Positions 39,517 to 63,938 are shown, counted from the whole stretch's first letter. The stretch is DNA of 63,938 nt, filler included, from Basidioascus undulatus (GCA_000826855.1; 5 parts of 5 records of this genome joined end to end with filler, not necessarily neighbours in it); one strand, 5' to 3'. Notes: generated by a model from the sequence alone, not told the origin. Made by a program: numbers and translations.

Positions 39517-39616
39517 NNNNNNNNNNNNNNNNNNNNNNNNNNNNNNNNNNNNNNNNNNNNTTAATTAATTAANNNNNNNNNNNNNNNNNNNNNNNNNNNN
39601 NNNNNNNNNNNNNNNN
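39517..39616. other. Artificial contig linker
   Basis: N44-TTAATTAATTAA-N44. Confidence 0.99.
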
Positions 39617-41485: not shown

Positions 41486-42535
41486 ATGGCCGCCGCCACC
41501 GCCCGACCAGCCCTGTCCGTCTGGGTAGACTACGTCTGTCCCTTCTGCTTACTCGCTGAGGAGGCAGTGTTCAAAGGTCCGTCTTCCCTACCTCCCTTCC
41601 TCCCTTCCTCCCCTTCCATTTCCCCGTCCTCCCACTTTCCCCCTCCCACTTTCCCCCTCTCCTCCCTCTTACCCACCTTTCTCGCTATTTCCGTCCTTCC
41701 CTCCTCCTCCCTTCCCCCCTCCCCGACCTCCCTAAAGCAATGACTGACGCTGCCCCGCCCGCAGTCGCCCAATCCCACTCCCTCCCCATCACCTGGCAGC
41801 CCTTCGAGCTCCGCCCCTTCCCCACACCCACGCTAAAACCCGAAGACCCGTATCTCCCCACCGTCTGGGCGCGGAGCGTCTACCCTAGTGCAGAGCGCTT
41901 GGGGGTGCCCATCAGGCTGCCCAGTGTGTCGCCGCAGCCTTATACGCACACGGCTTTCGAGGGTGCGCTTCCCTGACCTCTTCTTGTTCCTCCTTCGCTT
42001 CCTCTTCCTCCGCTTTGGGTTACTTATGATTGATGACGGGCGGGTAACAGGATTCCAGTACGCAGACAAGCACGGCAAAGGCACAGAGTGGACGATGGGG
42101 ACCATGCGCGCGTTCTTCCAACAAGACCGGGACATCGGGAAGATCGACGAGGTACGTCCACTCTTCATATTCTTCCCGCCTTTCATTCCTCCCTTCCCTC
42201 GACCTTACCCCAGCTGAACCCTCCAACCGGGGCAGCTCGTCGACATCGGCCGCTCCATAGGCCTCGACCCGGCCGAGCTGCGCCAGGCGCTGGAGGACAG
42301 GCGGTATCAGCAAGCGCATGTCGAGGCGCGCGAGAAGTGCGTTCTCCCGTTAATCCTTTGCTTTTCTACAGCTAGAAAATAAACTGATGGAATACTGGGC
42401 GGGACTGGTAGGGCTTACGCCCGCGGCGTCCGCGCGGTGCCGACGATCGAGTTCAAGGGGCGCGTCTTTTCGGGCGTGCCGAGTGTGGGGGAGCTGGAGG
42501 GGTTTGTGAGGGAGGGGCTGGGGGAGGGGAAATAG
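41486..42535 (+). CDS. DsbA/FrnE-family thioredoxin-fold oxidoreductase (bacterial YwbO-like); 5 exons
   Basis: SVWVDYVCPFCLLAE (CxxC), WQPFELRPFPTPTLKPEDPYL, SVYPSAERLGVPIRLPSVSPQPYTHTAFEG, RAFFQQDRDIG and GVRAVPT (cis-Pro). Four GT-AG introns; TAG at 42533-42535. Confidence 0.9.
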
Positions 42536-43734
42536 ATTGGAGGGGATGAAACTGTGCGGGAGTGTGCGGGACTAGATGGCGTTGTGCGCTTGCCTGCCCT
42601 TGGTGAGAGCTTCGTTGAAGCTGCATGAGGGTTTTCTCAGTGGGTTGAATAGTCTACTTACACTCGCAGCAAGACATTTTCAGCCGCTCTGAAAGTCGAT
42701 TCTGTTCGGACTTCAGAGGCTCGTGGTGCGCCTGCTCCTCTGCCGGCCGTGGGCGAGCGGCGGCGATGCAAAGGTACTGCACTGGAACTGACGACAGGTA
42801 GAGAATGGCAATTAATCTGACTTTCCTACTGTCCCGAAATTACGCTTTGAATACTGCAAGCTGGAAAGCACCCCATGTGCAAGTTCAGGGCTGTTCAGTC
42901 GGAAACTGTTGGTCCTTAGGCGGAATCAGGGACCCTCCAGCTCCTCGAAAGCGACAAGATAACCAAGACCAAAATTCAAGCTGCTCACTGAACCCAAGTC
43001 TAGGCGCACGGTTCGTGAAAGGGAAGAGATGAGCGGTCCGGTTTCGACCGCGATGTTGCATCGGTGGAGAGAAGACCACCGTGACTCAGTGGACAAGTAC
43101 ACGGCGCATTGTCTTCCCCGCCCGAACACGAGATACCGGTGGTCGAGGTTTATTGTAAAAATAAAACAAAGACAGAAATGATGTGTGGTCTCCTGGTAGA
43201 GCGGATGACGCGTCATCGGCTTCCAGATTTGCTGCGTCGTCGCTTCGCTGTCCTTCACACGTTCCTATGCGACTGCCTGTACTCGAGTGAAACTCACTCG
43301 CCTAGGATGTGGTAAAGCCGAGAACCATCAATAAAATTCCTCCAGGACAGTGGGTGATATTTTCAATAAGCCTCCCCAACTTTCGTACGGTGCTGAACGT
43401 CAGCGACCTGGCGTATTCCCTCATGCACCCGCCCAGCCCATTCAACTGAATGGTCTCTCCGCGACAACCGGACCCGACTTTCACTATCAATCACACACTC
43501 CGAAACGACCTCACATACGCGGCAATGCATGCACAAGCTATCTGTTGACGAGCAAAAGAACAGACAGAGATTCCGACCAGCGGGAGAAAGGAACCAGGGC
43601 GCCCTGCGCCATTCCAGTCTCAAAGGAAAACACGTCAAGCAGCAGCGGGAGCAGCACCGCATTCTTCACTCGGTCGGGAGGCGGGTTAGACGCGGACGAC
43701 AGGACCTGGTCCAGCCAGGCCTGCCACGGCGGCC

Positions 43735-46700: not shown

Positions 46701-46829
46701 CGTCTTCCTCGAGACGCTCGATATGAGGGTGGTACACACGCCAAGGAGAGCAGCGAAGAAGTAGTTCAAGTACAGAGAAAGCTGGAAGCCGGACGGCCCA
46801 TCAGGAGCGGTGGCGTGGCCCGCCGCCAT
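43735..46829 (-). CDS. Ferric/cupric reductase (FRE/NOX family); multi-exon
   Basis: RRSGWISVALCPAIVGLGLKNS, GWGYEK, LGRLSFIFSLIHT, FAD-binding HPITIASA and VKSAGDWT, IEGPYG, NADPH-binding VGVCGP, C-terminal VHIHSE-MFSW*. Confidence 0.88.
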
Positions 46830-48376
46830 GGTCGCTCAGGGATTGGGCGTGTCTTGTCGTGCTGATTTGAGCGAGTGTGGGAGATTGCGAAAGATCGAGA
46901 AGCCGAATGAACAGCTGAAAGAGGTACCAAGAGAATGATCGGAGAGGAAAGGGCGTGTACAGAGGAGGGAACTTGGAAAAACCGGAAAGTGGAATAAGTC
47001 AGAGAAAAGTGCGGCCTGCGCAACGAGGATGAGGACGACGGGGGCTGGAGTGGAGTGGAAAGAGAAGAAGGGGGAGCGGGTCGGTCTCTGATAGTTGATT
47101 TCCCCGGCGGAGCCGTCTCAATTCCGTGAAAGAGCACGGCAGAGCCGCTGCGGAAAACTTGAGTGCCACACGTCGTAGACGGAGCACCCCCGACGCTCGT
47201 CAGAAGTTTTCCTGGACACTGCGCCGCGGGCTGTTGATACGAAAGTACTGGGAACCTCAAAGCAATATCAAAAGGGTTATGTCGATGCGTAGCCTGAAAT
47301 AAACAACCTCGTGATATCATCTGCGTTTCGGAACAAAAGACAAGGGAAGAGAAGAGCGGCTTCTTTGTGCCCATTGACTGAGACGCAGCGGGCCGCCCTG
47401 TCTGGAAGGGGCAGCGCTGTCATCGGGGAAATGAAGCAGGGTGCTTGGGGTGACGAGAGGCTGATGAGCGACTCTTTCATGTGCATGTCTAAGAAATGGT
47501 ATTATCAGCGTATGACTTTGAATCACCTCTAGGACGTAAAGTCGGTAAGGTGAGGTCATCCGTAGGCGCGGTGAAGCAAGAGCACAGCCGGGTGTAACAG
47601 AATCTGTCGCAGCGCAGCGGCGCTGAAACCTTTCCCAAAGACTTGCCTCTCTTGCCGGGTTTGACTGGGGATAGAATTTGTGTTCCCTAATACAGCACAC
47701 AGTGACGGTAAAGGCCTGTAACGAGCAATACAGTGACAATAATGGTTTGGTGGAAGGCACGAAGGACGCCCGTTGGACGATCAAAATGGCGGCAACTGCG
47801 TGTCGTGCTTGTGTCACGCAGCAATTCCTGATTCTAATACCTCCTTTGTGCATAAATAACCATGCATAATGGCCGTGGGAGACTCGAGAGTGGTGTTTGC
47901 TTGCTGTAAGGCACCCGGAATTGCGGCAGGGGTCAGCGATTCCGAGTTTATATGTCTGCTGATGAGAATCGCAGCTTGATGTTCCTTAATATTCTGAAAC
48001 ACTTTTGATAAAGGAAATGCTCAATCCACCTGATATGTACGCAAATCAGCGTAGTTGCTGAACACAAGCTCGAAGCAGGAACCGCTGTCGATACATCCTC
48101 TTTCATGGCGGTGGGACCTTGGTAGCTTAGCTGACAATGCACTCCAAATATCGGTAACGTCCACAGCAATGGTGAAATTTATATTATGTAGTATGCTTTC
48201 GGCAACTCCGAAAAAGGAGGCCAGTTGAGGACACAAGTCAGGCGGCACTTTCCGATGCAGTTAGGCGCCTTATCGACAGAACGACAGTTTTCGCTTCCGG
48301 GAAGCCTTCGTCCAAAGACCACAAAAAACATTCCTCTTATTTCCGCCAAGCAGAATGGTATCAATGCTCGCACAAG

Positions 48377-48598
48377 CTAAACCCGCGCTCGTACAACCGC
48401 TCGTTGACATCCTCCGTGATGTTCGAGCGCTCCTCCATAAGCTTCTCTATGCTGCTTAGCCTCCTCGACCGACATGAGCCACCGCGGACCCCCCTCTTCC
48501 TTGCGCTCCTCGTACGAAAGTTCTCGGACTTTCTCGCAGATGAGCTCGAAGACGTCCGCGGGCAGGCGGAAGCGCGAGAAACGCGCGCGCGGTTGCAT
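48377..48598 (-). CDS. F-box-like N-terminal segment of a hypothetical or degenerate gene
   Basis: MQPRARFSRFRLPADVFELICEKV fits the LP.E/D....I...V F-box start. Downstream exons are unresolved. Confidence 0.4.
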   Translation of the reverse strand: MQPRARFSRFRLPADVFELICEKVRELSYEERKEEGGPRWLMSVEEAKQHREAYGGALEHHGGCQRAVVRARV

Positions 48599-48959
48599 GC
48601 GGATCTCGCGAAACCGTCGTGAAACCGTCAGAACGTCGGATATGCACGTTCTCGGGTACGTAGGTAGCGGGTGGGGTGCGGTGTACGTAAAGGGGGACTG
48701 CGGTGGGACGTCGGACGTGGAGAGGATGCGCTTGGTGGGATCGACGAGGAAGAAGGCCAGGATCTTACGGTGGCCGGGCTTCGTACGGTCTGCGAGTGCA
48801 AACGGCGACAGGCCGTGTTACAGCCCGTTGGGGAAGCAGACGCAGCGCTCCTCGGGCGTCGACACACTGCCGAGGTACTGGTTGGCGGCACCAAGACGCC
48901 GTACAGGTGACTAGAGGTACACATTGCGCTGGATCCCAGTGTCCATGCATGATGAAAGC

Positions 48960-51130
48960 TTAGAGTGTGCCAAACCAAGGTGTTGCGTTGGCCAAAAATC
49001 TACCTCGAACTTTGCGAAAACAGTTTAAGGCTGAGGCGAGAAGAGATTCACACGGGCTTTCGCCACAAAACAGTACAGGCACGCAGATAGTGTGACGAGG
49101 GACTGGGGAATAGGAATGGTTCGACAAGTGTTGGTGGCTAAGGAGGTGCAAGCGGGTATGGAAAAGATGGTCTGCCCTCATGATCGTCCCACAGCCTCGC
49201 TATACGGGGAGTTTGGCGCAGCGCGCCGGCCAGCCATCGATCTGGTCCATGTGGTCGAGCAGGCGTTCGATGATGTCCATTGTACCCAGGCTCGAGTGCC
49301 AGGCTGCTGCCCCGGAACGCGTTACAAAGCGCGTCAGCAGCAGAATGTCCATGATGACCGCGACGCCGTTGTAGATGTACTGCGGCGCGTGGCGCAGGTC
49401 CATGGACGCGGCGGTGGAGATGAAGGCGCCATTGGCAAAGATGAGCTTCCTGCCTGCGATGCCGTACGAGCGCTTGCGGAATGAAAGCGCGAGAGACGAG
49501 GGCAGGAGGTGGATGGCGATGGTGAGGCGGGGCGCGAGGAAGCTGTGAATGTTGAACGAGCTGAGGAGAAGCAAGTCGAGGCATGCTTGATTGGACCAAA
49601 GGTCCCTGTAGGATGGAGTCAGCAGTTGATCACCCAAAACGTCAATGCCTGCACGATGCACCTCTCAGTCCCTCGGTCTCCGCTCTCCAGCTCTTCAAGA
49701 ACGCGTCAAACCTTTGAGAGCTTCAGCTCCTCTTTGCAGGGAGTTCCCCACAAACTTGCTGTGTTCAATGGTCCGAATCGCAGCAACAAACGCCTGCTGG
49801 CTCAACAAGGACCTTGTTCTCCAGCACGAGAACGTGATCTATAAAGTTGTGCGTTGTCGTAAGCGGGGAAGCGAGGTAACGCGGCGCAAAGATATCGTCG
49901 GCAGGTGGAGAGGGCATAGGCGGAATGAACAAATTGGGCGCGTAGAACATGCTCAAGCTGCAGGACGGTGGAGTGAGTTAGCTATTGCGAGCTTTGAAAT
50001 CCAGACAAATGAACATACAAGAGATCGAGGTTGCATAGACTGCATCACTAGATTGCGACGGAGACTATGAGTTCGAGTTGCGAAGGAGATTGGATGGAGG
50101 GCTGTTCCCTCCTTCAAATTGTGCACCCGTCCAACCCATTTCCACGCCCATAGCGACGGCGATCTTGACCAGCGCGTACGGCTCGTGCGTTCGGCGCGCC
50201 GACGTGTGGTCCTCGGGCGGGGACGGCGATGTCCCGACCAGTGCAACTGCAAGGAGTGCGAATATGTTGGCATATGACGGAGTGGGTTAGAGGCCGCCAG
50301 CTTGGAGATGGGATTCGAGAAGCGCGTGCAAGCGCTCGAGCGTGCAGGGACTGACGGGTGATGTCGGGTGGGCCGGCGAGAACTGCAGTATGGAGGAAGG
50401 CTCTGGAAGTGAGAGTGGCATTTGACGTAAAAGGCTGAAGAAAGTGGAGGTAGTATCGTGCAAACTTGCAGGAAAGGGGCATCAGCTCTGCTGTTAACAT
50501 TATCTTGACATGGTTCTGCGAAGACTACGCACATTTGTCGGCCATCCTCGTACGACTGTGTATTCTGCACCTGAAGTACAAATGACGCGGGCGTAGCCCA
50601 CATGAGAGAGTCCTCCTGTGCGTCATGGAGCGTGAAGCTCTCGCCGTAGTCAGGCGTCTCGACGGCGAGCGCTGAGGGCGGCCGCAGCGAGTCGTACGTC
50701 GACTCATCTAGCGTGTGCGGGACAGCGGACCTTCGCGGTAGACCGCGGGTGGGCAGGCGAGGCCAAGGCCAACATTGTGCGTCGCGAGAACGGCTTCAAC
50801 ATGAGCGAGGCGCTGCTTGATCGAGCTCAAGGTAGACGGCGCTGGCGGGCATGACAACGGTGGTTGTTCCTTCATCGTCACTTCATAAGTTGTTCGTGCG
50901 AGACCCGCATGGTGTTTCCGGCCAAGGGAGAATGCGACACTTGCCTTGACGGACCAGCAACCGCCGGCTGCACTGGCTTGGCTCCCGCACTTGACAGCAA
51001 CGTCTTCCTCCTCCAACGAACACCCAATCTGTAAGACAGAGCACCGGTGATACTCTCAGCCCCGTACTCGTCCTCGAGCTCGCAGCGCGACTTTTGCCTT
51101 ATGGCAACCGGGGCTGGACGAGCAGAGGTG
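48960..51130 (-). pseudogene. Degenerate Zn(II)2Cys6 fungal transcription factor
   Basis: Across two frameshifts the cluster reads GCHKAK-SRCELEDEYGA-EYHRCSVLQIGC, followed by the coiled coil LSSIKQRLAHVEAVL and helical TF-like segments with stops. Confidence 0.5.
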
Positions 51131-51662
51131 AGCGTCGGTAAGTTCCCGTACGGGAGTGAGCAAGATCGTGACGCGTGTGAAGTTCGAATTGAGAATCGAA
51201 TTGAGAATTGAGTTCGACATTGGACTTCTGCGTGAGTGGGTCAACAAGCATGGAATTCGACTTCGCAGGAGGTGGTTGGCAAACGAGTTATGTTACAGTT
51301 CGAAGTTCCTGTGTCGTCTCGCCGCCTCGCTCGCTCGATCAGATGGTCTTTTCGCTCCCCTCAGCCGGGTCGATTACTCCAGTGAACTTGAAATTGTTCA
51401 TTCAGCACATGTCTTTCGAATTATTATACTTTCATCATCCTTCTTCCTCAAAACACACGCGCCGCGCAGTCTGGCTCATTTCCCCCATCAAGCACGTGAA
51501 ACCGCGCGCTCAGTCAGCACGGCGCACTGCGTCTTCGCCATAACCTCTCCATCTTTCGTCTTCCCCTGCTCCCTTCCTCTTCACCCAGTTAACACACCCC
51601 TCACCCCTCACCCGGCAACCCTTTTCCTTCTTTCCCCATTCTCACCCTGAGCCCAACGCACG

Positions 51663-52711
51663 ATGGGCGCGCTCATGTCCACCGCGTCCGCGCCGCCCGC
51701 GCTCGACACGCTCCTCGTCACCAACATCTCCCTGCCCGACGCGCTGCTCGACCGGCTGAGGGGGCTGTTTAAGCATGTGCTTTATTATCCGGATGCGAAG
51801 GAGGTGCGTCTTCCCTCCCCATCCCCACCGACCTGCCTTCCTCCCTCCCCTGTCCTCCCTCTTTCCACTCGCCTTCCTCCACCCGCGACTCTAGAAACTC
51901 ACTCCGGCGGCGAAACGCAGATTGACCCCTCCGACCTCCGCCGCGCCACAGTCCTCTTCGGCTTCCCCCCCCTTCTCTCTTCACGCGCGGAAGTGCCCAA
52001 CCTGTCCTTCGTGCAGCTCACCTCTGCTGGTGCGGACCGCGCGCTGGAGAGTCCCATCTGGAAGGACCGGAGCAACCGGCCGAGGCTTGCGAGCGCGAGT
52101 GGGGTGCACACGGGGGCGATACCGCAGGTCCGTTGGAGCGAGGGGAGGGAGGGGAATGGGAAGAAGAGAGGGAGAGGGAAGGCTGATGCGAGACGGGGAT
52201 GGGTAGTATGTCATTGCGACGACGCTGGCACTGTTCCACAAGCTGCAGGAACAGATCTTGATCGCTCAGGTGAGCGCCCTTCCTTCCCTTGCCTTCCCCC
52301 GGGGCTAATCCCCTCCTCCCCAGAACGAACACCGCTGGGCGACGCGCGAAGAGATCGCGGGCGACGGATCGCCGCTGTTCATCCGCGAGCTGCGCGGTCG
52401 AACGTTTGGGGTGCTCGTGCGTCTTCACCAATCCCCCTCCTCCATCCCTCTCCCCTCTGCCTCTCCTTCCCCCCCCTTCCATTTCCTTCTCTTCCTGTCG
52501 CTCATCGCTCGCGCGCTCCGGATCGAAGGGATACGGCCATGTACGTCTTCCCCAGACAACCTGAAAAGAAGAAAGGGAGGAAGTATTGATGTGCTCGGGG
52601 GAAACCGCAGATCGGCCGCGAATCAGCCCGCCTCGCCACAGCCTTCGGCGCGCGCATCATCGCCGCCACGTCCGACGGGCTCCCCAAGAAGCAGGAGGGG
52701 TTCATCTTCCC
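51663..52711 (+). CDS. D-isomer-specific 2-hydroxyacid dehydrogenase; 3' end cut by the contig end
   Basis: VPNLSFVQLTSAGAD, LASASGVHTGAIPQ|YVIAT and RELRGRTFGVL|GYGH|IGRESARLATAFGARIIA (Rossmann GxGxxG split by introns). Confidence 0.88.
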
Positions 52712-52811
52712 NNNNNNNNNNNNNNNNNNNNNNNNNNNNNNNNNNNNNNNNNNNNTTAATTAATTAANNNNNNNNNNNNNNNNNNNNNNNNNNNNNNNNN
52801 NNNNNNNNNNN
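52712..52811. other. Artificial contig linker
   Basis: N44-TTAATTAATTAA-N44. Confidence 0.99.
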
Positions 52812-53158
52812 CTCTCCTTCTCCCCTGCATTTCTCTTTTTTTTCTTTTCTTTTTTATTTTTTTATAAAAAAAAATAAAAAAAAAAAAAAAGTCAGGCCAA
52901 GGGGCAGGGGAGCAGAGCCTTCTCTTCGAAGGCGAAGCCCATTAGGGGCAGGGAAGAAGAGCACTGCATTTTGAAGCCTTCCGGAGAGCAGGGAAGAGAG
53001 CAGCGCATCAAAATGCAAAGATGCAGAGAAAGCAAAGGGATGAGGGTGCCCTATAGGTATCCGATGACGGATCCGACTGGTGTGAGCCGGTCGGTTGTAC
53101 TCGCAGTACAGAACGGTGGCGAGTATGCTGAGTTGAGTGCGATGTTGCATGCCGTGTG

Positions 53159-54610
53159 ATGCTACTGACGTTGGTACTGATTCCGCTGGTGACGGCTGGA
53201 CTGATTGCACTGGGCTGGCAAGCTGAGCTGTGGTCAGAGCGAGCCAATTTTGTTCTGGCTCTACTGGGGACGACTGTGACGTTTACCGTGTCGATCGTGC
53301 TGTGGCTCCGGTTCGATGACTCGTTTGTTGGCTACCAGTTCGTGCAGGAGACACTGACAACAAGTTTTTGCTCGTTGCACTTCGGTGTCGATGGTGTCGG
53401 ACTTGTGTTCGTACTGCTGACGACTCTGACTATGCCGATTGCTGTACTATCATCGTGGTCAAACGTGAGCCGACAGACGGGGCTATACTTGGTGCTACTT
53501 CTGGTACTGGAGTCACTGCTGGTTGCGGTGTTCACTGTCACTGATCTGTTGCTCTTCTACATTTTTTTCGAGTCGGTTCTGATCCCACTCTTTTTTATTG
53601 TGGGGATCTGGGGCGGATCTGGTCGTGAGCGAGCGGCGTTCCTGCTCTTTCTCTACACGCTTGCTGGCTCGCTCTTCATGCTGCTTGGGATCCTGGTCGT
53701 CTACAGCCACGTCGGTTCGACTGACTTTACTATGCTACGACTGGCCGGGATCGCGCCTGAGTGGCAGACTGTGCTGTGGCTCGCCTTCTTTTTGAGCCTG
53801 GCAGTCAAGACGCCACTGGTACCGTTCCACATCTGGCTGCCACGAGCCCACGCCGAGGCCCCGGTTGCCGGTAGCATTATCCTAGCTGGTCTGATCCTGA
53901 AGCTAGCGACGTACGGTTACATCCGTGTGCTACTCGAGCTGCTCCCTGATGCGACTTCGTACTTCCAGCCACTCGTACAAACGATCGCTGTAATCACGCT
54001 AGTCTACTCATCACTGGCCACACTACGCCAAACTGACTTCAAGGCACTGATTGCCATGAGCTCGGTTGCCCACATGGCAGTCGTCATCCTGGGACTGTTC
54101 AGTAACACTCTTCAGGGGATCGAAGGCGCCTTGGCTCTCAGTCTCGCTCACGGTTTGGTTTCACCCGCACTTTTTGTACTGGTCGGTGCTGTGCTCTACG
54201 ACCGATTCCACACCCGGGTCATCCGATACTACCGCGGGGTCACTGTTTACATGCCGCTCTTCTCGGTAATCTTTTTCCTCTTCACACTCGCAAACGCTGG
54301 AACCCCGTTGTTCCTGAACTGGAGTGGGGAAGTCATGGCACTGATGGGTGCATTCCAGCGTAACCCTGTTCTAGCTGCGCTTGGTGCATCAGGTATCGTC
54401 TTCTCTGCAGCCTACTCTATCTGGCTCTACTCTCGGATTAGCTTCGGAGCTTGGAGCAACTACTTGTCACACACAACGGACCTTTCACGACGTGAGTTCG
54501 CTGTGCTCTTCCCACTTCTCGTACTGACACTAGTACTCGGTATCTGGCCTAACGTAATCCTAAACAGCCTGCACGCTACAGTTACCACACTACTTTACGC
54601 TGCTGGATAG
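53159..54610 (+). CDS. nad4: Mitochondrial NADH dehydrogenase subunit 4
   Basis: Intronless 483-codon ORF with FYIFFESVLIPLF, AVKTPLVPFHIWLPRAHAEAP, LILKLATYG and SSVAHM; TAG stop. Confidence 0.97.
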   Translation: MLLTLVLIPLVTAGLIALGWQAELWSERANFVLALLGTTVTFTVSIVLWLRFDDSFVGYQFVQETLTTSFCSLHFGVDGVGLVFVLLTTLTMPIAVLSSWSNVSRQTGLYLVLLLVLESLLVAVFTVTDLLLFYIFFESVLIPLFFIVGIWGGSGRERAAFLLFLYTLAGSLFMLLGILVVYSHVGSTDFTMLRLAGIAPEWQTVLWLAFFLSLAVKTPLVPFHIWLPRAHAEAPVAGSIILAGLILKLATYGYIRVLLELLPDATSYFQPLVQTIAVITLVYSSLATLRQTDFKALIAMSSVAHMAVVILGLFSNTLQGIEGALALSLAHGLVSPALFVLVGAVLYDRFHTRVIRYYRGVTVYMPLFSVIFFLFTLANAGTPLFLNWSGEVMALMGAFQRNPVLAALGASGIVFSAAYSIWLYSRISFGAWSNYLSHTTDLSRREFAVLFPLLVLTLVLGIWPNVILNSLHATVTTLLYAAG

Positions 54611-55268
54611 TAACTTCCCCCGCATCACTTCTTCTTCTCTGCCGTATCGACCGCTCCGCTCTCTCTTCCGGCTCCCCTTACCCCCCCACCGCATTCTACT
54701 CCGCAGGACTGATGCAGGGGTCCGTAGGAGAGAGCAACGCATCAAAATGCTGAAGAAGGAGCAGAGCAGAGCAGTCGGTACGGCAGAGCAGAGCCGGAAG
54801 ATAGATGCAGGGAGAGCTTTTCATTCCCCTTTCCTTATCGTCTCACGATAGCAGAACTTGGTCACTGCACGTATTCGCCAAGCGTTATGACAGCGTACAT
54901 GTTTTCCCTGCATCTTCTCTCCCCGCTCTCCCTGCATTTTGCTTCGAAGGCCAAGGGGGGGGAGCAGTCCGTAGGGGAGTACCTCTCCTCTTCGCATCAG
55001 AATGCAGAGGGCAGACTAATAAGTTAGAGTCTGCAAGAGGTACGGATGCGGTGGGGGGAAGTCAGCACACTGCTCTACACTGCTGGATAGTGACTTCCCT
55101 GCATCTTTGCATTTTGATGCGCTGCTCCCAATGAAGGGGAGCGGAAATGCGAAGGGAGAGCTTATCACTCCCCTTTTATAGTCGTCTCTGCGAAGCGATA
55201 GACAATAGCTTAGTCGGTCACTCTTATTGTCTCACGATAGCCTGGAGTAGTAAAGGAAGCACGCTGCC

Positions 55269-55339
55269 AAGCCCATAGTTCAGTGGCAGAACGGGCAGCC
55301 GATAATTGCCAAGCAGAGGTTCGATTCCTCTTGGGCTTA
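55269..55339 (+). tRNA. trnI: tRNA-Ile(GAT)
   Basis: Acceptor AAGCCCA/TGGGCTT, D stem GTTC/GAAC, anticodon arm GGCAG-CCGATAA-TTGCC, T arm AGAGG-TTCGATT-CCTCT. Confidence 0.92.
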
Positions 55340-55723
55340 GCGCTGACTGACGGCTGTGTCTGGCCTAAGTCGAGAACTTGCTCTCCCCCCCCGCCCTACG
55401 GACTGCATCAAAATGCGAATGCAGAAGCATCTCTCTCTCTAACCCTAATAAGTAAGAGAAGGCGAAGCCGGCTCCTCTTACCCCCCACCGCATTCTCTCT
55501 TCCGTACCGACTGCTCTCCGAAGGAGGAGCGGAGAAGAAGAACTGATGCAGGGGTCCGTAGGAGAGAGCACCGCATCAAAATGCAGAAGAAGCGACACCA
55601 AGTTACGCCGAACTCCGAGTGCGTAGCTGTAGCTGTAGCAGTAGCAGTAGCAGTAGAGAAGGGTACAGCTACGTTATTGTCTCACGATATGTGCGACCGT
55701 GGCCACAGCGCATCAAAATGCAG

Positions 55724-55795
55724 AGAGCCCAGAGGGAGTCGAACCCTGAGAGTACGAGCTTGCAACTCGCCTGCTGACCGTCAGCTTCTAGGCTC
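55724..55795 (-). tRNA. trnC: tRNA-Cys(GCA), non-canonical fold
   Basis: Minus strand reads GAGCCTAG AA GCTG-ACGGT-CAGC AG GCGAG-TTGCAAG-CTCGT ACTCTC AGGG-TTCGACT-CCCT CTGGGCTC T. G1-C72 and U73 fit Cys identity. Confidence 0.85.
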
Positions 55796-56392
55796 GCTTG
55801 TGTCGCACTCTCTTCATCCCCCCTACGGACTCCGCTCTTCCTCTGCATTCTGATGCTCTGCATTCTGATGCGCTGCATTCTGATGCGGAGGAGAGGAGCA
55901 CTGCATCTTCTCTAACCCTAATAAGTTAGAGTGATGCGCTCTGCCGTACCTCTCCTCTTCTTCCAGCTCCCCCTGCATTTTGATGCGGGGGGAGCAGGGA
56001 AGAGGGAGGGCAGACTGCTCTCCTTCTCTGCGAAGCCCTGCATCTTCTCTTACTTATTAGGGTCTTACTTATTAGTCTTACTTATTAGGGTCTTACTTAT
56101 TAGTCCTTCGGAGAGAGAGAGTGATGCGAAGGGGCGGGCTTCTTCTTCCAGCCCTAACCCCTGCCGTACCTCCCCTCTTCTTCCAGCTCCCCCTGCATTT
56201 TGATGCGGGGGGAGCAGGGAAGAGGGAGGGCAGACTGCATCAAAATGCGGAATGCGGTGGGGGGTAAGGAGAGCAGGGAAGAGAGAGCCGGAAGAGAGAA
56301 GGGGGAGGGGAGTGTCGCGTCGGTTCGGTGTCGTCGTCGTCGTTGTCGTAGTAGTCGTAGGCTTCGATCGCGGTTACAGGTACGCCGTCCGG

Positions 56393-57049
56393 CTAGTTGT
56401 GGTACTCGGACTCAGGCGTAGTGTGCGAGACCTGGTCAAGACAGAGTGCGATCGGTCCGACCATGCCGAGCAGTAGCAGGATGCTGCCAAGGATCAGCCA
56501 GACTGCACCGTACGTGTACAGACCGTGTCCGATGGCCTCCAAGTTAGTAAATTCGAGTACGGTGCTGTCGATAGCGGCTGATGAGAACGCTTGGTGTACG
56601 GTCTCAGCGGCTCCGTTGGCGTGACCCGACTGACTGACGCCGAAGATCGCCTGCTGAAGTGACGTGTACAGTCCAAGCAGTCGGTTCTGGCTGGCAGTCT
56701 CGGCTAGACTTACTGGTAGCACACTGATCAGTTCAAAAAATAGTGTTGCACCGACGATCAGTCCGAGCGGCAGGTTCTGTGTGTACTCACGTCCAACTTC
56801 GATCAGTTCAACCAGTTGCAGGTTCATCATCATGACCACGAAAAGGAACAGCATCGCGATAGCGCCAACGTACACGATCAGGTAACTCAGTCCGACGAAT
56901 CCGATCCCGAGCAGTACCAGGTAGCAGGCACTCATAACAAATGTGCCGATCAGGAACAGCACTGAGCTCACTGGGCTCTTGGCGGTAATGACCAGCAATC
57001 CGCTGACAATCGCACCTGTAGCAACCAGGTCCAGTAGTACGGCGTTCAT
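56393..57049 (-). CDS. nad6: Mitochondrial NADH dehydrogenase subunit 6
   Basis: VITAKSPVSSVLFLI, YLIVYVGAIAMLFLFVVMMMN, IGHGLYTYGAVWLIL and LLLGMVGPI. ATG at 57049, TAG stop. Confidence 0.96.
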   Translation of the reverse strand: MNAVLLDLVATGAIVSGLLVITAKSPVSSVLFLIGTFVMSACYLVLLGIGFVGLSYLIVYVGAIAMLFLFVVMMMNLQLVELIEVGREYTQNLPLGLIVGATLFFELISVLPVSLAETASQNRLLGLYTSLQQAIFGVSQSGHANGAAETVHQAFSSAAIDSTVLEFTNLEAIGHGLYTYGAVWLILGSILLLLGMVGPIALCLDQVSHTTPESEYHN

Positions 57050-57421
57050 AATATGTGTGGACAATCCTGCCCGCCCAATCAGGCTGGCGAACCCTTAAGG
57101 CCTCCGCGAGGTACTGACGTCTGAGCACTCGGCCATGGCCAGGCAACAGACATTGCTGAAGTCTTGCGCTCAGTCCAGCTCATGCATGGTTTCGAGCCAG
57201 CTGAGCTCTGAGCTTGGTTTTTTTTTGGGTATTTACCCCAAAAAAAAAAGACACACCGCACTTCCCTGCATCACTCTTTTTTATTTTTTTTGTTCTTTTT
57301 TATTTTTTTTGTTTTTATTTTTTTTATTAAAAAAAATAAAAAAGAAAAAAAAAATAAAAACAAAAAATCATAAACAAAAAAAATAAAAAAGTCATGCGAG
57401 GGGAGAGTAACGCTGGTAGTC

Positions 57422-57492
57422 AGCCTCTGCCGGGAATTGAACCCAAATCCTACCGTTAACAGCGGTACGCTTTACCATTAAGCTACAGCGGC
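57422..57492 (-). tRNA. trnN: tRNA-Asn(GTT)
   Basis: GCCGCTG..GCTT-AATGGTA-AAGC..TACCG-CTGTTAA-CGGTA..TTGGG-TTCAATT-CCCGG CAGAGGC. Confidence 0.92.
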
Positions 57493-58511
57493 CTCGACAG
57501 TGCTGTACGGTACAACGTGCACCGCGCTACCTATAGCTGACCGGTAGTATCGCTCTCTTCTTCTTCGCCCCCTACGGCATTCTGACTCCCCTACGGACTG
57601 CAAGAGGACCCCTCTTCTCTCCCCTACGGACTGCAAGAGGACCCCCACCGCATCCGTACCTCCCCTCTGCATTCTGATGCGTGGAGGGCAGACTCTAACT
57701 TATTAGTCGGTACGGAGAGAAGATGCAGCGCATCACCGCTCTAACTTATTAGGGTAAGAGCAGAAGATGCAGAGAGGGGAAGCGCTTCTTCTTCTTGTGC
57801 TCCGCTCCTTCCGCTCTTAGGAGCAGAGCAGTCGGTACGGCAGAGCAGTCGGTACGGCAGAGCAGAGCCGGAAGAGAGATGGGGGGCTCCTTCTTCCCCG
57901 AAGGACTGCTTTTTCTCTAACTTATTAGTCTGCCCTCCACGCATCAGAATGCAGAGGGGAGGTACTCCTTCTTCTTCCGGCTCTGCTCCTTCTTCTTATG
58001 CTCTTAGGAGCCGGAAGAGAGAGCGGAGCAGAGCGCATCACTTCGAAGATGCAGAGAGAGAAGAGCGTGGAAGAGAGCAGACAGGGGAAAAGAAAAAGAA
58101 GGACTGCCCTTATTTTTTTATTTCATTAGTGCATTGCTTTTTCTCTTTCGGGTCCTCCCCTCTGCATTCTGATGCGTGGAGGGCAGACTAATAAGTAAGA
58201 GAAGAAAAGTGGATGCGGGTGGTAGAGTATTCAAAGCGTAGTGCTCCATTGTCTCACGATACTTGCTGTTATTTTAGCCTTTGCCAGCCAAAAAAGGGTG
58301 CTGACAGCTTGATTGCTGTCAGGCTAAAGGTAGCCTTCTCTCTCTTCCGGCTCTGCTCTGCTCTGCTCCTAAGAGCGGAGCGGAGCGGAGCAGAGAAGAA
58401 GAAGCCCTGCATCTTCTCTTACTTATTAGGGTCCGTAGGAGAGTGATGCCCTCCCTGCATTCGCATTTTGATGCAGATCCCAAGGGGGGGGGGGAGAGCC
58501 TATTCGGTCCT

Positions 58512-58582
58512 GGAGAATTAGCTGAGTGGTTTAGCGCGCATCTTACACGTGCGATACGGCGGTTCGATCCCGTCATTCTCTA
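58512..58582 (+). tRNA. trnV: tRNA-Val(TAC)
   Basis: Acceptor GGAGAAT/ATTCTCT, anticodon arm CGCAT-CTTACAC-GTGCG, T arm GGCGG-TTCGATC-CCGTC. Confidence 0.93.
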
Positions 58583-58746
58583 CTGTGCTGAGTAACAACG
58601 CCGCCAACCGACCGTACGATTCCAGCCTGTGCTGAGTCGCCGATAGTACCTGTCGCAGGGCTGTCGACACTGAGTCCGAGTGCGCTGCTGCTGACTGTCC
58701 GTGACTGGTTCAGTAGTACGCCGCTGAGTGCTGAGGCGAAACGACC

Positions 58747-59511
58747 ATGACAGCCATGCTATCACAACTGTTTCTGACGCCGGTGTTGTGCGACGCTCCG
58801 TACCCGTGGCAGATCTCGTTCCAGGACGGTGCGAGCCCGACATTCGAGGGAATCACTGAACTGCACGACTCCATCTTTTTTTACCTGGTAGTCATCGCTG
58901 TCGGTGTCTTCTGGGCACTGGGTAGCACTATCCTGAACTTCAACTCAGCCAACAACGGCATCGCGTACAAATACGCCAACCACGGCACTTTGATTGAGCT
59001 GGTATGGACTATCACGCCAGCCCTGGTGCTGATCGCCATTGCGTTCCCTAGCTTCAAACTGCTGTATCTGATGGATGAGGTTATCTCGCCTAGCATGACC
59101 GTCAAGGTCGACGGACACCAATGGTACTGGAGCTACGAGTACTGCGACTACCTAAGCGAGGGTGGCGAAGCGCTTGAGTTCGACAGCTACATGGTGCCTG
59201 AGAGCGACCTGGAACTTGGCCAGCTGCGACTGCTTGAAGTTGACGCCCGAGTCGTCGTACCGGTTGACACACACATCCGATTTATCGTGACTGCCTCGGA
59301 CGTTATCCATGACTTCGCCGTGCCTTCACTAGGCCTTAAAATCGACGCCGTACCCGGCCGGCTGAACCAAACGTCAGTGCTAGTACAGCGTGAAGGCACG
59401 TACTACGGTCAGTGCTCAGAGCTGTGTGGTGTTGGACACGCGTTTATGCCGATCGTGATCGAAGCAGTATCGCTTGAGAAATACCTGGCCTGGCTCGACT
59501 CGCAGTTCTAG
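58747..59511 (+). CDS. cox2: Cytochrome c oxidase subunit 2
   Basis: DAPYPWQISFQD, GHQWYWSYEY, DVIHDFAVPSLG and the CuA motif CSELCGVGHAFM; TAG stop. The start could be the second ATG at 58756. Confidence 0.98.
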   Translation: MTAMLSQLFLTPVLCDAPYPWQISFQDGASPTFEGITELHDSIFFYLVVIAVGVFWALGSTILNFNSANNGIAYKYANHGTLIELVWTITPALVLIAIAFPSFKLLYLMDEVISPSMTVKVDGHQWYWSYEYCDYLSEGGEALEFDSYMVPESDLELGQLRLLEVDARVVVPVDTHIRFIVTASDVIHDFAVPSLGLKIDAVPGRLNQTSVLVQREGTYYGQCSELCGVGHAFMPIVIEAVSLEKYLAWLDSQF

Positions 59512-59782
59512 TCGCAGGCCCTGACTCCCCTACGGTTGCCAGCCAACCTTAATATCGCTTTATCTTTCTCCTCCGCATCAGAATGCAGCGCATCACCGCT
59601 CTAACTAATAAGTAAGAGCAGTCCGTAGGGGATGCAGCGCATCACTTCGAAGATGCAGAAGAGCACAGTTGCTGCTATATCGTGAGACAATGTTTTGCTC
59701 GTATCCGTAGCGCATCACTCTAACTTATTAGGGTAAGAGAAGATGCAAAGGGGACTCCAGGCTGCTGCAGTCAGTCGATTGA

Positions 59783-60223
<441 letters not shown>

Positions 60224-60224
60224 G

Positions 60225-60307
60225 GCGAGCATGCCGGAATGGTATACGGGTCTCACTCAAGCTGAGATGGTCACACGACCGTGAGAGTTCAAGCCTCTCT
60301 GCTCGTA
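60225..60307 (+). tRNA. trnL: tRNA-Leu(CAA)
   Basis: Acceptor GCGAGCA/TGCTCGT, anticodon arm TCTCA-CTCAAGC-TGAGA, long variable arm GGTC-ACAC-GACC, T arm GAGAG-TTCAAGC-CTCTC. Confidence 0.93.
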
Positions 60308-60486
60308 GTCGTTGCAGGCCTGGCTCGTATGCTCTTCCTCTGCCTCTTCTCTCCGTACCGACTAATAAGTTAGAGTGATGCGCTTCTTCTTCCGGCTCTG
60401 CTCCTTCTTCCGCTCTTAGGAGCAGAGAAGAGAGAGCGGAGCAGAGCGCATCACTTCGAAGATGCAGAGAGAGAGGAGAAACGACC

Positions 60487-60560
60487 GGTAGTTTTAGCTC
60501 ACGTGGCAGAGCGCCGGTATGTGGCACCGGAGGCACCTGGTTCGAGTCCAGGATTCTACC
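60487..60560 (+). tRNA. trnH: tRNA-His(GTG) with encoded G-1
   Basis: G-1/C73, D stem GCTC/GAGC, anticodon arm CCGGT-ATGTGGC-ACCGG, T arm CCTGG-TTCGAGT-CCAGG; two U-U mismatches in the acceptor stem. Confidence 0.9.
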
Positions 60561-60562
60561 CT

Positions 60563-60982
60563 GATCGCTAGCAGCCCACAGCTCTGAACCACTGGGCCAG
60601 TCCGATCGACGGTCAGTACCGACCCGGTCAGCTGGCTTGGAAAGTCCGACGCTGACTCAGGCTTCAGATCACAGCAGGAGCTGAGCCAAGTCTACAGTGA
60701 GTGCCGAACCGTTCAGTCCGCCCCCCCCCCTCTCCCTGCTTTAGAAAGCGCATTACTTCTTCTTCTTATGCTCTTAGGAGCCGGAAGAGAGATGCAGTGC
60801 TCCTCTTCTTTAGAAGAGAGAGCGGAGGGGGGGGAGAAGGAGTGTGCTGGACACTAAATTAAGCACGTGTCGCCTGGTATCGATCAGGCAGCGGTTTGGA
60901 AGCCGAACGCGGAGCGCAGCGCTGGTTTCAGTTTACTCAGGTCACACAATTTGGCTTACTCGGAGCTACCAGGCTAGCGATC
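60563..60982 (+). ncRNA. rnpB: Mitochondrial RNase P RNA
   Basis: CR-I GGAAAGTCCG (60639) and CR-V ACACAATTTGGCTTA (60944) can pair as P4 with a bulged U. Terminal helices GATCGCTAGC/GCTAGCGATC and AGCTCTGA/TCGGAGCT (P1), P2 CTGGG/CTCAG, P3 GCCAGT/GCTGGC, and CR-II-like AAGTCTACAGTGAG are also present. Confidence 0.88.
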
Positions 60983-60985
60983 GCT

Positions 60986-61059
60986 GTCGGAATAGGCTCA
61001 AGTGGTTAAACCATACCGCTCATGACGGTAATTTGACGGTTCGAATCCGTCTTCCGGCC
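60986..61059 (+). tRNA. trnM: tRNA-Met(CAT)
   Basis: Acceptor GTCGGAA/TTCCGGC, anticodon arm TACCG-CTCATGA-CGGTA, T arm GACGG-TTCGAAT-CCGTC. Initiator versus elongator is not resolved. Confidence 0.9.
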
Positions 61060-61879
61060 AGGTTGCAGTCTCTCCCCGCATTTCCGCTCCTCTCTCTTCC
61101 GTACCGACTGCTCCGCTCTCCTTCTCTGCATTCGCATTTTGATGCAGATGCGCTGCATCTTCTCTTACTTATTAGTCGGTACGAGAGTGATGCCCTCCCC
61201 CACCGCATCAGTTCTTCTTCCCTGCCCCTAATGGGCTTCGCAGAGAAGGCTCTTCTCCTCTACGCATCAGAATGCAGAGGAAGAGCATAGAAGAGAGAAT
61301 GCAGTGCATTACTTCTTCTTCTTATGCTCTCTAACCCCCCACCGCATCTGCATCTTCTGCTCCGGGGGAGCGGAAATGCGATGCAGGGGTAAGTGGAGCC
61401 GGAAGAGAGATGCAGTGCTCCTAAGAGCGGAGGGGGGGCAGGCTTCGCAGAGCAGAGCCGGAAGAGAGAAGTGGCGACTGCAGTATCGTCTCACGATGTT
61501 TACTACTGCCTCGGCTCTGTCTCATCACGGTTACGACTGTCGGATCATTTTCACGATACACGTGTACTGAGTGCTTGCTATCCTATTGTCCTACGATGTC
61601 TACTCAGGCTCTTCCATCGCTTTTTGCTTTTTCTGCGAAGCCCCACTAATGTCTTCTTCTCTAACCCCCCCTGCGGCGTACCTCTTGCAGACTGCATCTT
61701 CTCTAACTTATTAGTCGGTACTCCCCCTACGGACTGCTCCTCCCCCTTCGCATTAAAATGCAGGGAGAGCGGAGAGAGAAGATGCAAAGGGGAGGACTAC
61801 AGTACGACGGTCTGGCTGCACTGACTGTTGCATCGTCTTACGTTGTCGATGCCGATGCCGGAACACCAGGGGAGTCTGA

Positions 61880-62026
61880 CTAGAGTTTAGTTACAAGTAG
61901 TCGGCTGACTTGCAGTTCAACGAAGTGTGGCAGCACGTAGGCGGCGAACACGTAGTACAGCAGTCCGATCGCACCGAAGGCGAAGAACAGCTGGTTAACG
62001 AAGAAGAAAGGGAGTAGCTGTGGAAT
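61880..62026 (-). CDS. atp8: ATP synthase subunit 8 (48 aa from ATT; alternative ATG at 62050)
   Basis: (I/M)[12 protein letters not shown]...[19 protein letters not shown], matching the canonical fungal MPQL.PF.F.NQ start; TAG stop. Confidence 0.93.
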
Positions 62027-63289
62027 TGTATGGTTAGAGTCGCTGAGCATCACACCCAGGCTGACGAACCGTAATGGTTCGTAACTCAAGCCGAGTGATC
62101 GAACGATACTCGGAGCTCAGTTACGAGCTTGATGAGTTGCTAGTCGACCGTTTACAAGGTTTCGTAGTGGGTCGACTTCCTTTAGAACACGTCTGCTTTC
62201 TCCTACCGCTCTTACCCCCCCGCATCTGCATCTTCTGCTCCGGGGGAGCGGAAATGCGATGCAGGGGGGTTAGAGCACAGCATCCCTTCCCTAACTTATT
62301 AGGGTAAGACTGCATCTTCTCTTACTTATTAGGGTCTTACTTATTAGTCTGCCCCTCCCCCTCCCCCTCTGCATCTCTCTTCCCTGCTCCCCCCGCATCA
62401 AAATGCAGGGGGAGCTGGAAGAAGAAGTGATGCGCTGCATTCTGATGCGAAGAGGAGAGGAGAGGAGAGGTACGCTTCTTCCGCTCTTACTTATTAGGGT
62501 CCGTAGTCCTTCGGAGAGCACTGCTCTCTCTCTCTTCTGGGGAAGAAGAAGCCCTGCTCCCTAACCCCCCCCGCATTCTCTCTTCCGTACCGACTGCTCT
62601 TCTTCCGCTCTCTAACCCCTGCATCGCATTTCCGCTCCCCCGGAGCAGAAGATGCAGATGCGGTGGGGGGGTAAGGGGAGCAGAGCGCATCACTCTAACT
62701 AATAAGTAAGAGAAGATGCAGAGAGAGCCTTCATTGGGAAGAAGAACTGATGCAGGGGGGTAAGGAGCATCGCATCAAAATGCAGAAGGAGAGCGGAGGG
62801 GGGGGGGCGGATTGACTAACAAACAAGGCATCGTGCGACGATAGGACATCAACCCCCGGAGCACTGCATTTTGATGCGCTGCATCTGTCTTCCGGCTCTG
62901 CTCCCCTTACTTATTAGTCTAACCCCCCTGCATTCTCTCTTCCGGCTCCACACCCCTTCGCATCTGCATCAAAATGCGAATGCAGGGAGAAGGAGAGCAC
63001 CGCATCACTCTTACCCCCCCGTGGGGGGGTTAGAGAAGATGCAGAAGAAGAACTGATGCGGGGGGGTAAGAGAGAGCCGCATCAAAATGCAGAAGAAGAA
63101 GTGATGCCCACTGCTTGACTTTTTTTTTTGTATTTGTTTTTATTTTTTTCTTTTTGATTTTTTTTTATAAAAAAAATCAAAACAAAAAATAAAAAAGAAA
63201 AAAAAAGAGAAAGCGAAGTGAGAGGGAGGGGCGGCTGCATAGCGCATCAAAATGCAAAGGGGAGTTAGTCTGCGATGCAAAGCGTTAGG

Positions 63290-63583
63290 CTACGATTGCA
63301 CCGGCAGATCTTCGAAGGCGTGGAACGGCGTCGGTGACGTCAGTGACCACTCAAGGGATGATGCAGTAACGGCGTTCGACTCGAACTGTGGCGTGCTCTG
63401 GAAGTACGAAGGGACAGTCCAGTGGTTGCCTGTTACTGGTTCACCGTTGGCAAAGATGTCGTATACGATGTACACGAACAGCCCAGTGGCTACAACTGAG
63501 ATCATTGAGCCGAAGCTTGAGATGGCGTTCCAAGCAGCGAAGGCGTCAGGGTAGTCAGGGATACGTCGAGGCATACCGCTTAG
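63290..63583 (-). CDS. cox1: Cytochrome c oxidase subunit 1, terminal exon
   Basis: LSGMPRRIPDYPDAFAAWNAISSFGS...SSLEWSLTSPTPFHAFEDLPVQS*. Homology stops abruptly upstream of 63583. Confidence 0.95.
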   Translation of the reverse strand, partial: LSGMPRRIPDYPDAFAAWNAISSFGSMISVVATGLFVYIVYDIFANGEPVTGNHWTVPSYFQSTPQFESNAVTASSLEWSLTSPTPFHAFEDLPVQS

Positions 63584-63938
63584 CAAATCTCTCAGGTTAC
63601 TTGTCGCGCTTCTTATGCTCCGCCGTACCTCTCCTCTTTGGAGGGCAGACCGCTCCGCTCTCTAACCCCCCCCCGCATCAGTTCTTCTTCTCTGCTCCTT
63701 ACTTATTAGTCGGTACGGTTAGAGCCTTCATTGGGAAGAGAGAATGCAGGGGGGTAAGGGGAGCAGAGCAGTCTGCCCCTCCCCCTCTGCATTTTGATGC
63801 GCTGCATTCGCTTTTATCTTCCGGCTCTTCCTCTGCATTTTGATGCGCTGCATTTTGATGCGCTGCATTTTGATGCGCTGCATTTTGATGCGCTGCATTT
63901 TGATGCGCTGCATTTTGATGCGCTGCATTTTGATGCGC
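63584..63938 (-). other. 3' end of a probable group I intron in cox1, invaded by repeats
   Basis: The expected HFLG codons are replaced by ...GAGATTTG, ending in G (omega-G) directly before CTA AGC GGT ATG. The intron core is not visible in the window. Confidence 0.6.
63834..63938. repeat. Tandem array of seven 15-bp units TGCATTTTGATGCGC
   Basis: Perfect copies run to the end of the window; the same unit is dispersed through the mitochondrial spacers. Confidence 0.97.

Follow-up and report, generated by a model that had tools for sequence, protein, structure and literature searches.

Why does a fungal mitochondrial DNA in which other A-ending codons are common contain no TTA, ATA, AGA, AGG or TGA in its reading frames? 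The question is raised by the last of five contigs in the stretch of DNA analysed here (the window, 63,938 bases). These contigs are separate pieces that were joined by four identical artificial linkers, and only the fifth (52812-63938) is mitochondrial within the window. The first four are nuclear-like, with 52-67% guanine plus cytosine (GC), and are unrelated to the codon finding; neither a transfer RNA (tRNA) nor a mitochondrial gene was found in them. A first-pass annotation of the mitochondrial contig had noted the same gaps, together with six genes ending in TAG and a leucine tRNA with the anticodon CAA, and had proposed that up to six codons (TAA included) are unassigned or free for reassignment in this genome. 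In the present analysis the gaps separate into two layers. Those of ATA, AGA, AGG and TGA would be inherited from a clade of related fungi, and that of TTA would be specific to this lineage, through a change from TTA to TTG and a leucine tRNA with C at the wobble position (C34). The probability of this two-layer origin is put at about two in three.

Codon usage in the six reading frames

Codons were counted in nad4, nad6, cox2, atp9, atp8 and the last exon of cox1, with corrected ends, which gave a sample of 1178 sense codons. As the first-pass annotation had read by hand, TTA, TGA, ATA, AGA and AGG were not present in frame, and no other sense codon had a count of zero; a zero in 1178 bounds the frequency of each codon only below about 0.25%. 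Other A-ending codons were common, which had also been reported: A was found at 175 of the 695 four-fold sites, and CAA (13), GAA (16) and AAA (5) accounted for 34 of the 90 codons in the CAR, AAR and GAR boxes (A:G 34:56). The fragment's own A:G and A:C:T third-position ratios were used as the null for the missing codons. Under this null, the probability of finding no ATA among 74 isoleucine codons was 2e-15, and that of finding no TGA among 22 tryptophan codons was 3e-5. For TTA, the A:G ratio of the fragment's other two-fold purine boxes gave a probability of 0.002 for none among 13 TTR codons.

For comparison, 80 fungal mitochondrial loci around nad4 were taken from metagenome contigs, and in-frame codons were counted by aligning the six window proteins to these loci. 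The 16 loci closest to the window (34-45% GC) were used as the clade set and the remaining 64 as other fungi. None of the 80 loci was above 45% GC (the window contig is 53.1% GC).

The nearest named relatives of the window nad4 were members of the Ustilaginales (Ustilago maydis, Sporisorium reilianum, U. bromivora and Macalpinomyces), at 66-69% identity, and the nad4 search returned nothing closer. The nad4 proteins of these fungi are ~87% identical among themselves (mean column identity). The nad4 phylogeny was a quick tree only, in which the window had an end branch of 0.78 compared with a median of 0.06 and its sister group was not resolved. The source would thus be a basidiomycete close to the Ustilaginales, at the end of a long branch.

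The proposed change from TTA to TTG and the leucine tRNA

All 13 UUR leucine codons of the window were TTG. The sole UUR-box tRNA seen in the fragment was the one with the anticodon CAA to which the first-pass annotation had drawn attention, and both ARAGORN and the Rfam tRNA model recovered it (Table 1). It is a class II tRNA with a long variable arm and the anticodon loop CU-CAA-GC. Its identity to fungal mitochondrial trnL(UAA) and trnL(UAG) is 59-73%, and it is native in type. The 455 tRNAs predicted in the 80 fungal loci included 31 leucine tRNAs, 17 with the anticodon UAA, 14 with UAG and none with CAA. No report of a fungal mitochondrial trnL(CAA) was found in the literature, which is not proof of absence.

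In the clade relatives, TTA was counted 299 times compared with 6 for TTG, and the UUR box was not used in four of the loci (L001, L009, L010 and L012). The TTG sites of the window align mostly with leucine in the relatives, for example at nad4 codons 5, 384 and 436. Among the base differences to environmental sequencing runs that were listed (35 of 70), exchanges in both directions, TTG>CTG and CTG>TTG, were present in environmental relatives; 23 of the 26 coding differences listed were synonymous and none of the 26 created a missing codon. G-ending codons made up 24% here compared with 1-10% in the relatives, so the change from TTA to TTG belongs to a general shift. TTG-only use with a C34 leucine tRNA appears, on these comparisons, to be specific to this lineage. 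This pair of features is what remains particular to the lineage, as the gaps at ATA, AGA, AGG and TGA are shared by the clade.

The lysine codons of two clade loci point to a second, parallel wobble switch in the clade. The ratio of AAG to AAA was 13:0 in L009 and 6:0 in L010, most other clade loci used AAA only, and the lysine tRNA of L009 (7679-7751) has the anticodon CUU. These loci resemble the window in belonging to the same clade and in using a two-fold purine box through its G-ending codon only, with a C34 tRNA. They differ from it in that the amino acid is lysine and not leucine, and in that their genomes are 40-42% GC and otherwise avoid G-ending codons (G-ending fraction 3-5%).

The alternative that survives best is one of sampling, in which the missing codons are only rare, the remaining ~3/4 of the mitogenome contains TTA together with a U34 leucine tRNA, and trnL(CAA) serves as an additional copy for the more frequent TTG. 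The sample holds only 13 TTR codons, and the fragment is without many tRNAs that must exist, for example a reader of CTN. Paired tryptophan tRNAs, UCA and CCA, are found in three clade loci (L015-L017), and a complete relative (G002:C11) retains a remnant of a UAA-like leucine tRNA and 9 TTA codons. We nevertheless consider this alternative unlikely, at about one chance in four, because the probability of 0.002 for none among 13 stands against it, as does the fact that which codon of a box is used in the clade depends on the wobble base of its one tRNA (in L009, with trnK(CUU), only AAG; elsewhere only NNA). CAA and UAA leucine tRNAs were found together in none of the 80 loci. If a U34 leucine tRNA were present, it should also leave some TTA, since A-ending and G-ending codons both occur in the remaining two-fold purine boxes.

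Gaps shared by the clade

The other four gaps are not particular to the window. In the 16 clade loci, 10,004 aligned codons included no AGA, no AGG, 2 ATA and 10 TGA (9 of them in L039); the 39,773 codons of the 64 other fungal loci included 2086 ATA, 776 AGA and 213 TGA. One locus (L001), with 34% GC and a GC content at third codon positions (GC3) of 0.15, is Ustilago-like: its nad4 matches without difference a protein that groups with U. maydis. Read from the first ATG, its nad4, nad2 and nad1 contained no TTA, TTG, ATA, AGA, AGG or TGA, and where nad2 and nad1 were read from stop to stop, these triplets lay exclusively upstream of the first ATG. The 16 frames of the complete relative G002:C11 (4246 codons) contained no AGA, AGG or TGA, and TTG once. 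As AT-rich relatives (34-45% GC, one with a GC3 of 0.15) share the four gaps, these were not acquired in this genome, and the six codons cannot be treated as one event of this genome, as had been proposed. The aligned sequences indicate that non-use of ATA, AGA, AGG and TGA is an inherited trait of the clade, independent of GC content. The four-codon gap is associated with a minimal tRNA set and not with GC richness.

The replacements in the window were consistent from site to site. Of the 23 sites at which 30% or more of the other fungi have AGA, 21 are CGN in the window; at their ATA sites the window most often has ATC, and all 6 of their TGA sites are TGG in the window. In-frame TGA at tryptophan, by which NCBI table 4 would be recognised, was found at none of the 22 tryptophan codons, and TGA was the stop of none of the 6 frames here and of none of the 16 in G002:C11. 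TGA appears here to be neither a sense codon nor a stop.

The tRNAs of G002:C11 include Arg(UCG), Ile(GAU), Trp(CCA), Leu(UAG), two with CAU and a damaged UAA-like leucine tRNA. A tRNA-like gene with the anticodon CCU (Arg, AGG) and a low Rfam score (37.9 bits) was also observed in this mitogenome, at 174826-174900, despite the count of zero for AGA and AGG in its 4246 codons.

Tandem tryptophan tRNAs, one with UCA beside one with CCA, were located at 773-987 in L015, 7692-7872 in L016 and 6222-6394 in L017. These three loci use TGA at most once in the parts of the core genes examined, and they prefer GAG over GAA (28:5, 13:5 and 14:4, respectively).

No paper that describes ATA, AGR and TGA as unused across the mitochondria of the Ustilaginomycotina was found in the literature, which is not proof of absence. 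The clade-wide gaps are readable from published genomes and represent a modest surprise.

Proposed order of events

Two successive changes would account for what was observed directly, namely the counts of codons, the anticodons of the tRNAs and the pattern found across the relatives. In the first, older layer, the clade would rely on a small tRNA set. In this set CGN is read by the sole arginine tRNA (UCG) and ATY by the sole isoleucine tRNA (GAU), ATA has no additional CAU tRNA, and several members carry a tryptophan tRNA (CCA) for TGG only. Selection would keep ATA, AGA, AGG and TGA out of the core genes because the organelle encodes no efficient decoder for them. In the second layer, the few TTA codons would have become TTG or CTN under GC pressure, and U would have given way to C at the wobble position of the UUR leucine tRNA. 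Since C34 reads UUG only, UUA would no longer be decodable, and its loss would correspond to the disappearance step of the Osawa-Jukes codon-capture scheme. Compositional pressure towards loss was found for TTA only, as ATA, AGR and TGA are missing in AT-rich relatives too.

From this pattern we infer the direction and order of the changes and the parent leucine gene of the CAA tRNA, and also that no second UUR tRNA is present elsewhere in this mitogenome and that C34 of trnL(CAA) is not modified to read A. A fuller version would state that 59 sense codons are in use, that the lack of decoders for AUA, AGA, AGG and UGA was inherited, that UUA was lost after a rare turn to high GC through a change from U34 to C34 in the only UUR tRNA, that the genome represents a codon-capture intermediate, and that wobble switches have recurred in the clade, the trnK(CUU) relative being another instance. 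The odds of this whole chain holding seem to us about even.

Several observations weigh against the two-layer origin. The sample covers 1178 of probably 4000 or more codons, about 1/4 of the mitogenome. The fragment has no tRNA for its own 176 CTN codons, and as even this reader lies outside it, the absence of a tRNA inside the fragment is uninformative on the whole genome. A pair of UAA and CAA leucine tRNAs is conceivable, since L015-L017 pair tryptophan tRNAs UCA and CCA, and C34 could be modified so that it reads A as well, as is known for other tRNAs. The best matches of trnL(CAA), at 73% for the UAA type and 71% for the UAG type, are too close to decide its origin, and synteny is ambiguous on the same point, as several relatives have trnL(UAG) beside atp9. 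The intron open reading frames (ORFs) of L001 (LAGLIDADG, GIY-YIG and maturase) sparingly use the codons that its core genes are without, and in G002:C11 ATA (5) and TTA (9 of 4246) are rare rather than absent. For both of these reasons some decoding may exist, and the word unassigned is perhaps too strong. A report on U. maydis also states that its usage chart shows all codon combinations (PMC13028006).

Stop codons

All six genes ended in TAG, as previously annotated, and none in TAA or TGA. With the local A:G ratio, the probability of no TAA among six stops was 0.058, which is not significant. TAA and TAG are both used by the relatives: the 16 frames of G002:C11 end in TAA (13) and TAG (3), and TAA is the stop in 9 of 19 nad4 genes of relatives. 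Nothing suggests that TAA has lost its meaning as a stop. The TAG-only stops would be part of the same compositional shift, and a change in release-factor specificity would not be needed. The suggestion that UAG is possibly the only stop was thus not borne out.

These counts also bear on the proposal of a newly reduced code peculiar to this genome, in which TTA, ATA, AGA, AGG, TGA and TAA were freed together and UAG became the sole stop. The absence of six codons in frame, the six TAG stops and the presence of trnL(CAA) would all fit such a code. However, four of the six codons are equally absent in AT-rich relatives, the absence of TAA rests on six stops, and relatives stop with TAA as described above; we consider the proposal improbable. 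The term unassigned also goes too far for a fragment in which ~1/4 of the typical gene set was seen and outside which the tryptophan, arginine and second leucine tRNAs lie.

Base composition

GC-biased mutation that removed the AT-richest codons, with decoding uninvolved, might be considered for a contig of 53% GC in which the missing codons are AT-rich or A-ending. This explanation is very improbable. The four-fold sites are 52% GC with 25% A, and together with the 34 A-ending codons among the 90 of the CAA, AAA and GAA boxes this indicates that composition is not the cause. The same triplets were frequent out of frame within the same genes (frame 2 and frame 3, respectively: TGA 45 and 32, TTA 16 and 5, AGA 13 and 3) and in the ~7 kb of spacers (AGA 33 per 1000, TTA 13 per 1000), so the avoidance acts on codons and not on DNA composition. 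Relatives with a GC3 down to 0.15 are also without ATA, AGA, AGG and TGA. The first-pass annotation was right that GC bias alone does not explain the gaps.

Gene content and organisation of the contig

The contig combines core respiratory-chain and ATP-synthase genes with mitochondrial-type tRNAs, which identifies it as basidiomycete mitochondrial DNA. Protein genes were checked against Pfam, and tRNAs were identified by ARAGORN and Rfam RF00005 (Table 1). Pfam supported five of the six frames (nad4, nad6, cox2, atp9 and a fungal-type atp8). The last cox1 exon had no Pfam match and was identified by tblastn, with 52-63% identity to the atp8-adjacent exon of relatives, and by contigs from environmental runs. 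The gene set and coordinates of the first-pass annotation were reproduced in this way. That the contig is instead mitochondrial DNA copied into the nucleus, or a product of faulty assembly, with codon counts uninformative on decoding, as its joining to nuclear-like contigs and its breakage by repeats might suggest, is hardly credible, because the joins are artificial linkers, the six frames are open with Pfam-grade conservation, the seven tRNAs fold normally, run X2 reproduced the unique parts of the contig with zero differences at a depth of about 450-550, and environmental relatives differ mainly synonymously (the 23 of 26 coding differences listed).

Table 1. Features of the window, with joins and contigs first and the features of the mitochondrial contig in order of position
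Feature	Coordinates	Strand	Details
Artificial linkers	13116-13215, 26322-26421, 39517-39616, 52712-52811		44 N, TTAATTAATTAA, 44 N
Five contigs	1-13115, 13216-26321, 26422-39516, 39617-52711, 52812-63938		
Mitochondrial contig	52812-63938		fifth of five; 11,127 bases, 53.1% GC
T-run/A-run palindromes	52830-52890, 57277-57391, 63115-63220		arms 50-110 nt, 72-85% complementary
nad4	53159-54610	+	483 codons, TAG stop; PF00361 1e-73
tRNA-Ile(GAU)	55269-55339	+	reads ATY only; ARAGORN; RF00005 60.1 bits
tRNA-Cys(GCA)	55723-55795	-	ARAGORN only; not reported by Rfam at E<=0.1
nad6	56393-57049	-	218 codons, TAG stop; PF00499 3e-29
tRNA-Asn(GUU)	57421-57493	-	ARAGORN; RF00005 62.6 bits
tRNA-Val(UAC)	58512-58583	+	ARAGORN; RF00005 56.7 bits
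cox2	58747-59511	+	254 codons, TAG stop; PF00116 1.5e-60, PF02790 3.8e-31
atp9	59783-59995	-	70 codons, TAG stop; PF00137 6.6e-16
tRNA-Leu(CAA)	60225-60307	+	ARAGORN cloverleaf; RF00005 47.7 bits
tRNA-His(GUG)	60488-60561	+	ARAGORN and RF00005; His-Met pair conserved in relatives
tRNA(CAU)	60986-61059	+	ARAGORN and RF00005
atp8	61880-62050	-	56 codons from upstream ATG, TAG stop; PF05933 6.9e-17
cox1, last exon	63290-63583	-	97 codons, TAG stop
cox1 intron, 3' part	63584-63938	-	ends in 15-nt tandem repeat, 7.1 copies of CTGCATTTTGATGCG, 63833-63938

Contigs from the environmental runs X5 and X6 depart from the window at position 63583 and continue as ...LTFFPQHFLG. In the reverse complement reading, this is the cox1 stretch that precedes ...GMPRR, and it sets the intron-exon boundary at 63583/63584. 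The junction may represent spliced RNA or an intron-less relative, as the two runs are labelled metatranscriptomic but flagged 'probably DNA'. In atp8, ATT is found at 62024-62026, where fungal atp8 has a conserved start methionine (MPQL...). The product would have an N-terminal extension or an ATT start, since the sole ATG sits 8 codons upstream.

ARAGORN found seven tRNAs in the contig, all of which fold normally, and the Rfam tRNA model recognised six of them as well. Among them, the one with GAU was the sole isoleucine tRNA seen in the fragment. The best matches of the tRNA with the anticodon CAU were the His-adjacent CAU tRNAs of relatives, with 68-73% identity, which makes it their ortholog. 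By this similarity it is probably an elongator methionine tRNA, and we infer that it is not a lysidine isoleucine tRNA. Several gene neighbourhoods are common to the clade loci and the window, namely the pairing of trnH with trnM(CAU), the position of atp8 beside the last exon of cox1, and a trnL close to atp9.

The spacers, of ~7 kb in all, consist of short GC-rich modules and three long T-run/A-run palindromes. The modules (54611-63938) include GCATCAAAATGC-type palindromic cores, CTTACTTATTAG units and seven copies of a 15-nt tandem repeat, CTGCATTTTGATGCG (63833-63938). In run X2, their summed depth was up to ~10x that of the unique genes, which suggests that they are scattered across the mitogenome and break its assembly. 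A 22-nt spacer repeat with 5 sites in the contig had no exact match in the metagenome, genome and viral contig collections, and the 21 ORFs located in spacers or overlapping genes in other frames had no Pfam family. Each T-run/A-run palindrome lies at the edge of a gene block in otherwise GC-rich DNA, and reads appear to be cut there. The palindromes may be processing, termination or origin signals.

Contigs of the relatives

Two candidates for a GC-rich relative were rejected. L081 (50.9% GC) is really mitochondrial DNA of 40% GC with bacterial sequence of 67% GC on either side, and L115, on G001:C6 (best segment 68%), belongs to a 36% GC mitogenome outside the clade. G001:C6 carries trnR(UCU), trnW(UCA) and trnL(UAA), and it uses TTA, ATA, AGA and TGA freely.

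Both mitochondrial sequences were found in bacterial surroundings. G001:C6 (L115, L191-L193) is a 52-kb fungal mitochondrial contig inside a bacterial genome bin, with plasmid-like polymerase ORFs and several frameshifted genes. The mitogenome of G002:C11 (~172.7-197.5 kb; L081, L196, L197) is a complete, intron-poor fungal mitogenome of ~24.7 kb and 40% GC, embedded in a 402-kb bacterial contig with 67% GC flanks and with frameshifts in cox2 and nad1. Its position within a bacterial contig is most likely due to a chimeric long-read assembly.

Comparison with known systems

The Ustilaginales resemble the window in that they are nearest to it in nad4 and in that the core genes examined in L001 are without ATA, AGA, AGG and TGA. 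A further likeness is their small tRNA set: U. maydis mitogenomes have 22-23 tRNAs, with more than one gene only for Met (2), Leu (2, both UAG) and Ser (PMC13028006). The window also shares the adjoining of atp8 and the last cox1 exon with four clade loci (L002, L004, L005 and L015). Unlike the window, the Ustilaginales have AT-rich DNA (L001, 34% GC and GC3 0.15). Their leucine tRNAs are both UAG and their stops mostly TAA, 13 of 14 in the text of the U. maydis report (PMC13028006), and TTR is not used at all, whereas the window has TTG with trnL(CAA) and TAG at six of six stops.

Similar features have been described singly in other fungi. In the mitochondrial DNA (mtDNA) of the basidiomycete yeast Rhodotorula taiwanensis (41% GC), the portion of the paper available reports that ATA and AGG are unused in 15 typical genes, that TGA occurs once compared with 73 TGG, and that intron ORFs use all codons (PMC3633354). 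It differs from the window in belonging to another subphylum, and in that portion AGA and TTA are not reported as unused and no C34 leucine tRNA is described. The mtDNA of Candida subhashii is ~53% GC, with a GC3 of 66% and GC-rich non-coding DNA, and a 2012 review knew of no other fungus whose mtDNA is GC-rich (PMC3438683). It is like the window in its ~53% GC and unlike it in that the fungus is an ascomycete yeast and its mitogenome is linear, compact and free of introns.

In the codon-capture scheme of Osawa and Jukes, compositional pressure empties a codon and the matching tRNA changes or is lost (PMC4695839). Examples of codon disappearance are AGA and AUA in Micrococcus luteus and CGG in Mycoplasma capricolum. 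A change from TTA to TTG together with one from U34 to C34 would fit the first step of this scheme. The window departs from it in that only TTA fits GC pressure, while ATA, AGR and TGA are unused against the bias of AT-rich relatives. For the bacterial examples, unreadability is reported to have been proven in vitro, whereas that of UUA in the window is predicted from the sequence.

Genetic-code change has been proposed to begin with unused codons whose tRNAs are missing or altered, and natural cases that show the pressure, the vanished codon and the altered anticodon together are few. In this genome two causes may be separable, an old loss that does not depend on composition and goes with a minimal set of tRNAs, and a recent, GC-driven flip from TTA to TTG with a C34 tRNA. 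The finding also adds a basidiomycete to a very short list of fungi with GC-rich mtDNA. In the annotation of these mitogenomes, TGA should not be assumed to encode tryptophan, nor should ATA and AGR be assumed to be read at all. If the fuller version given above is true, wobble-base switches would repeatedly flip the readable codon of two-fold boxes in this clade.

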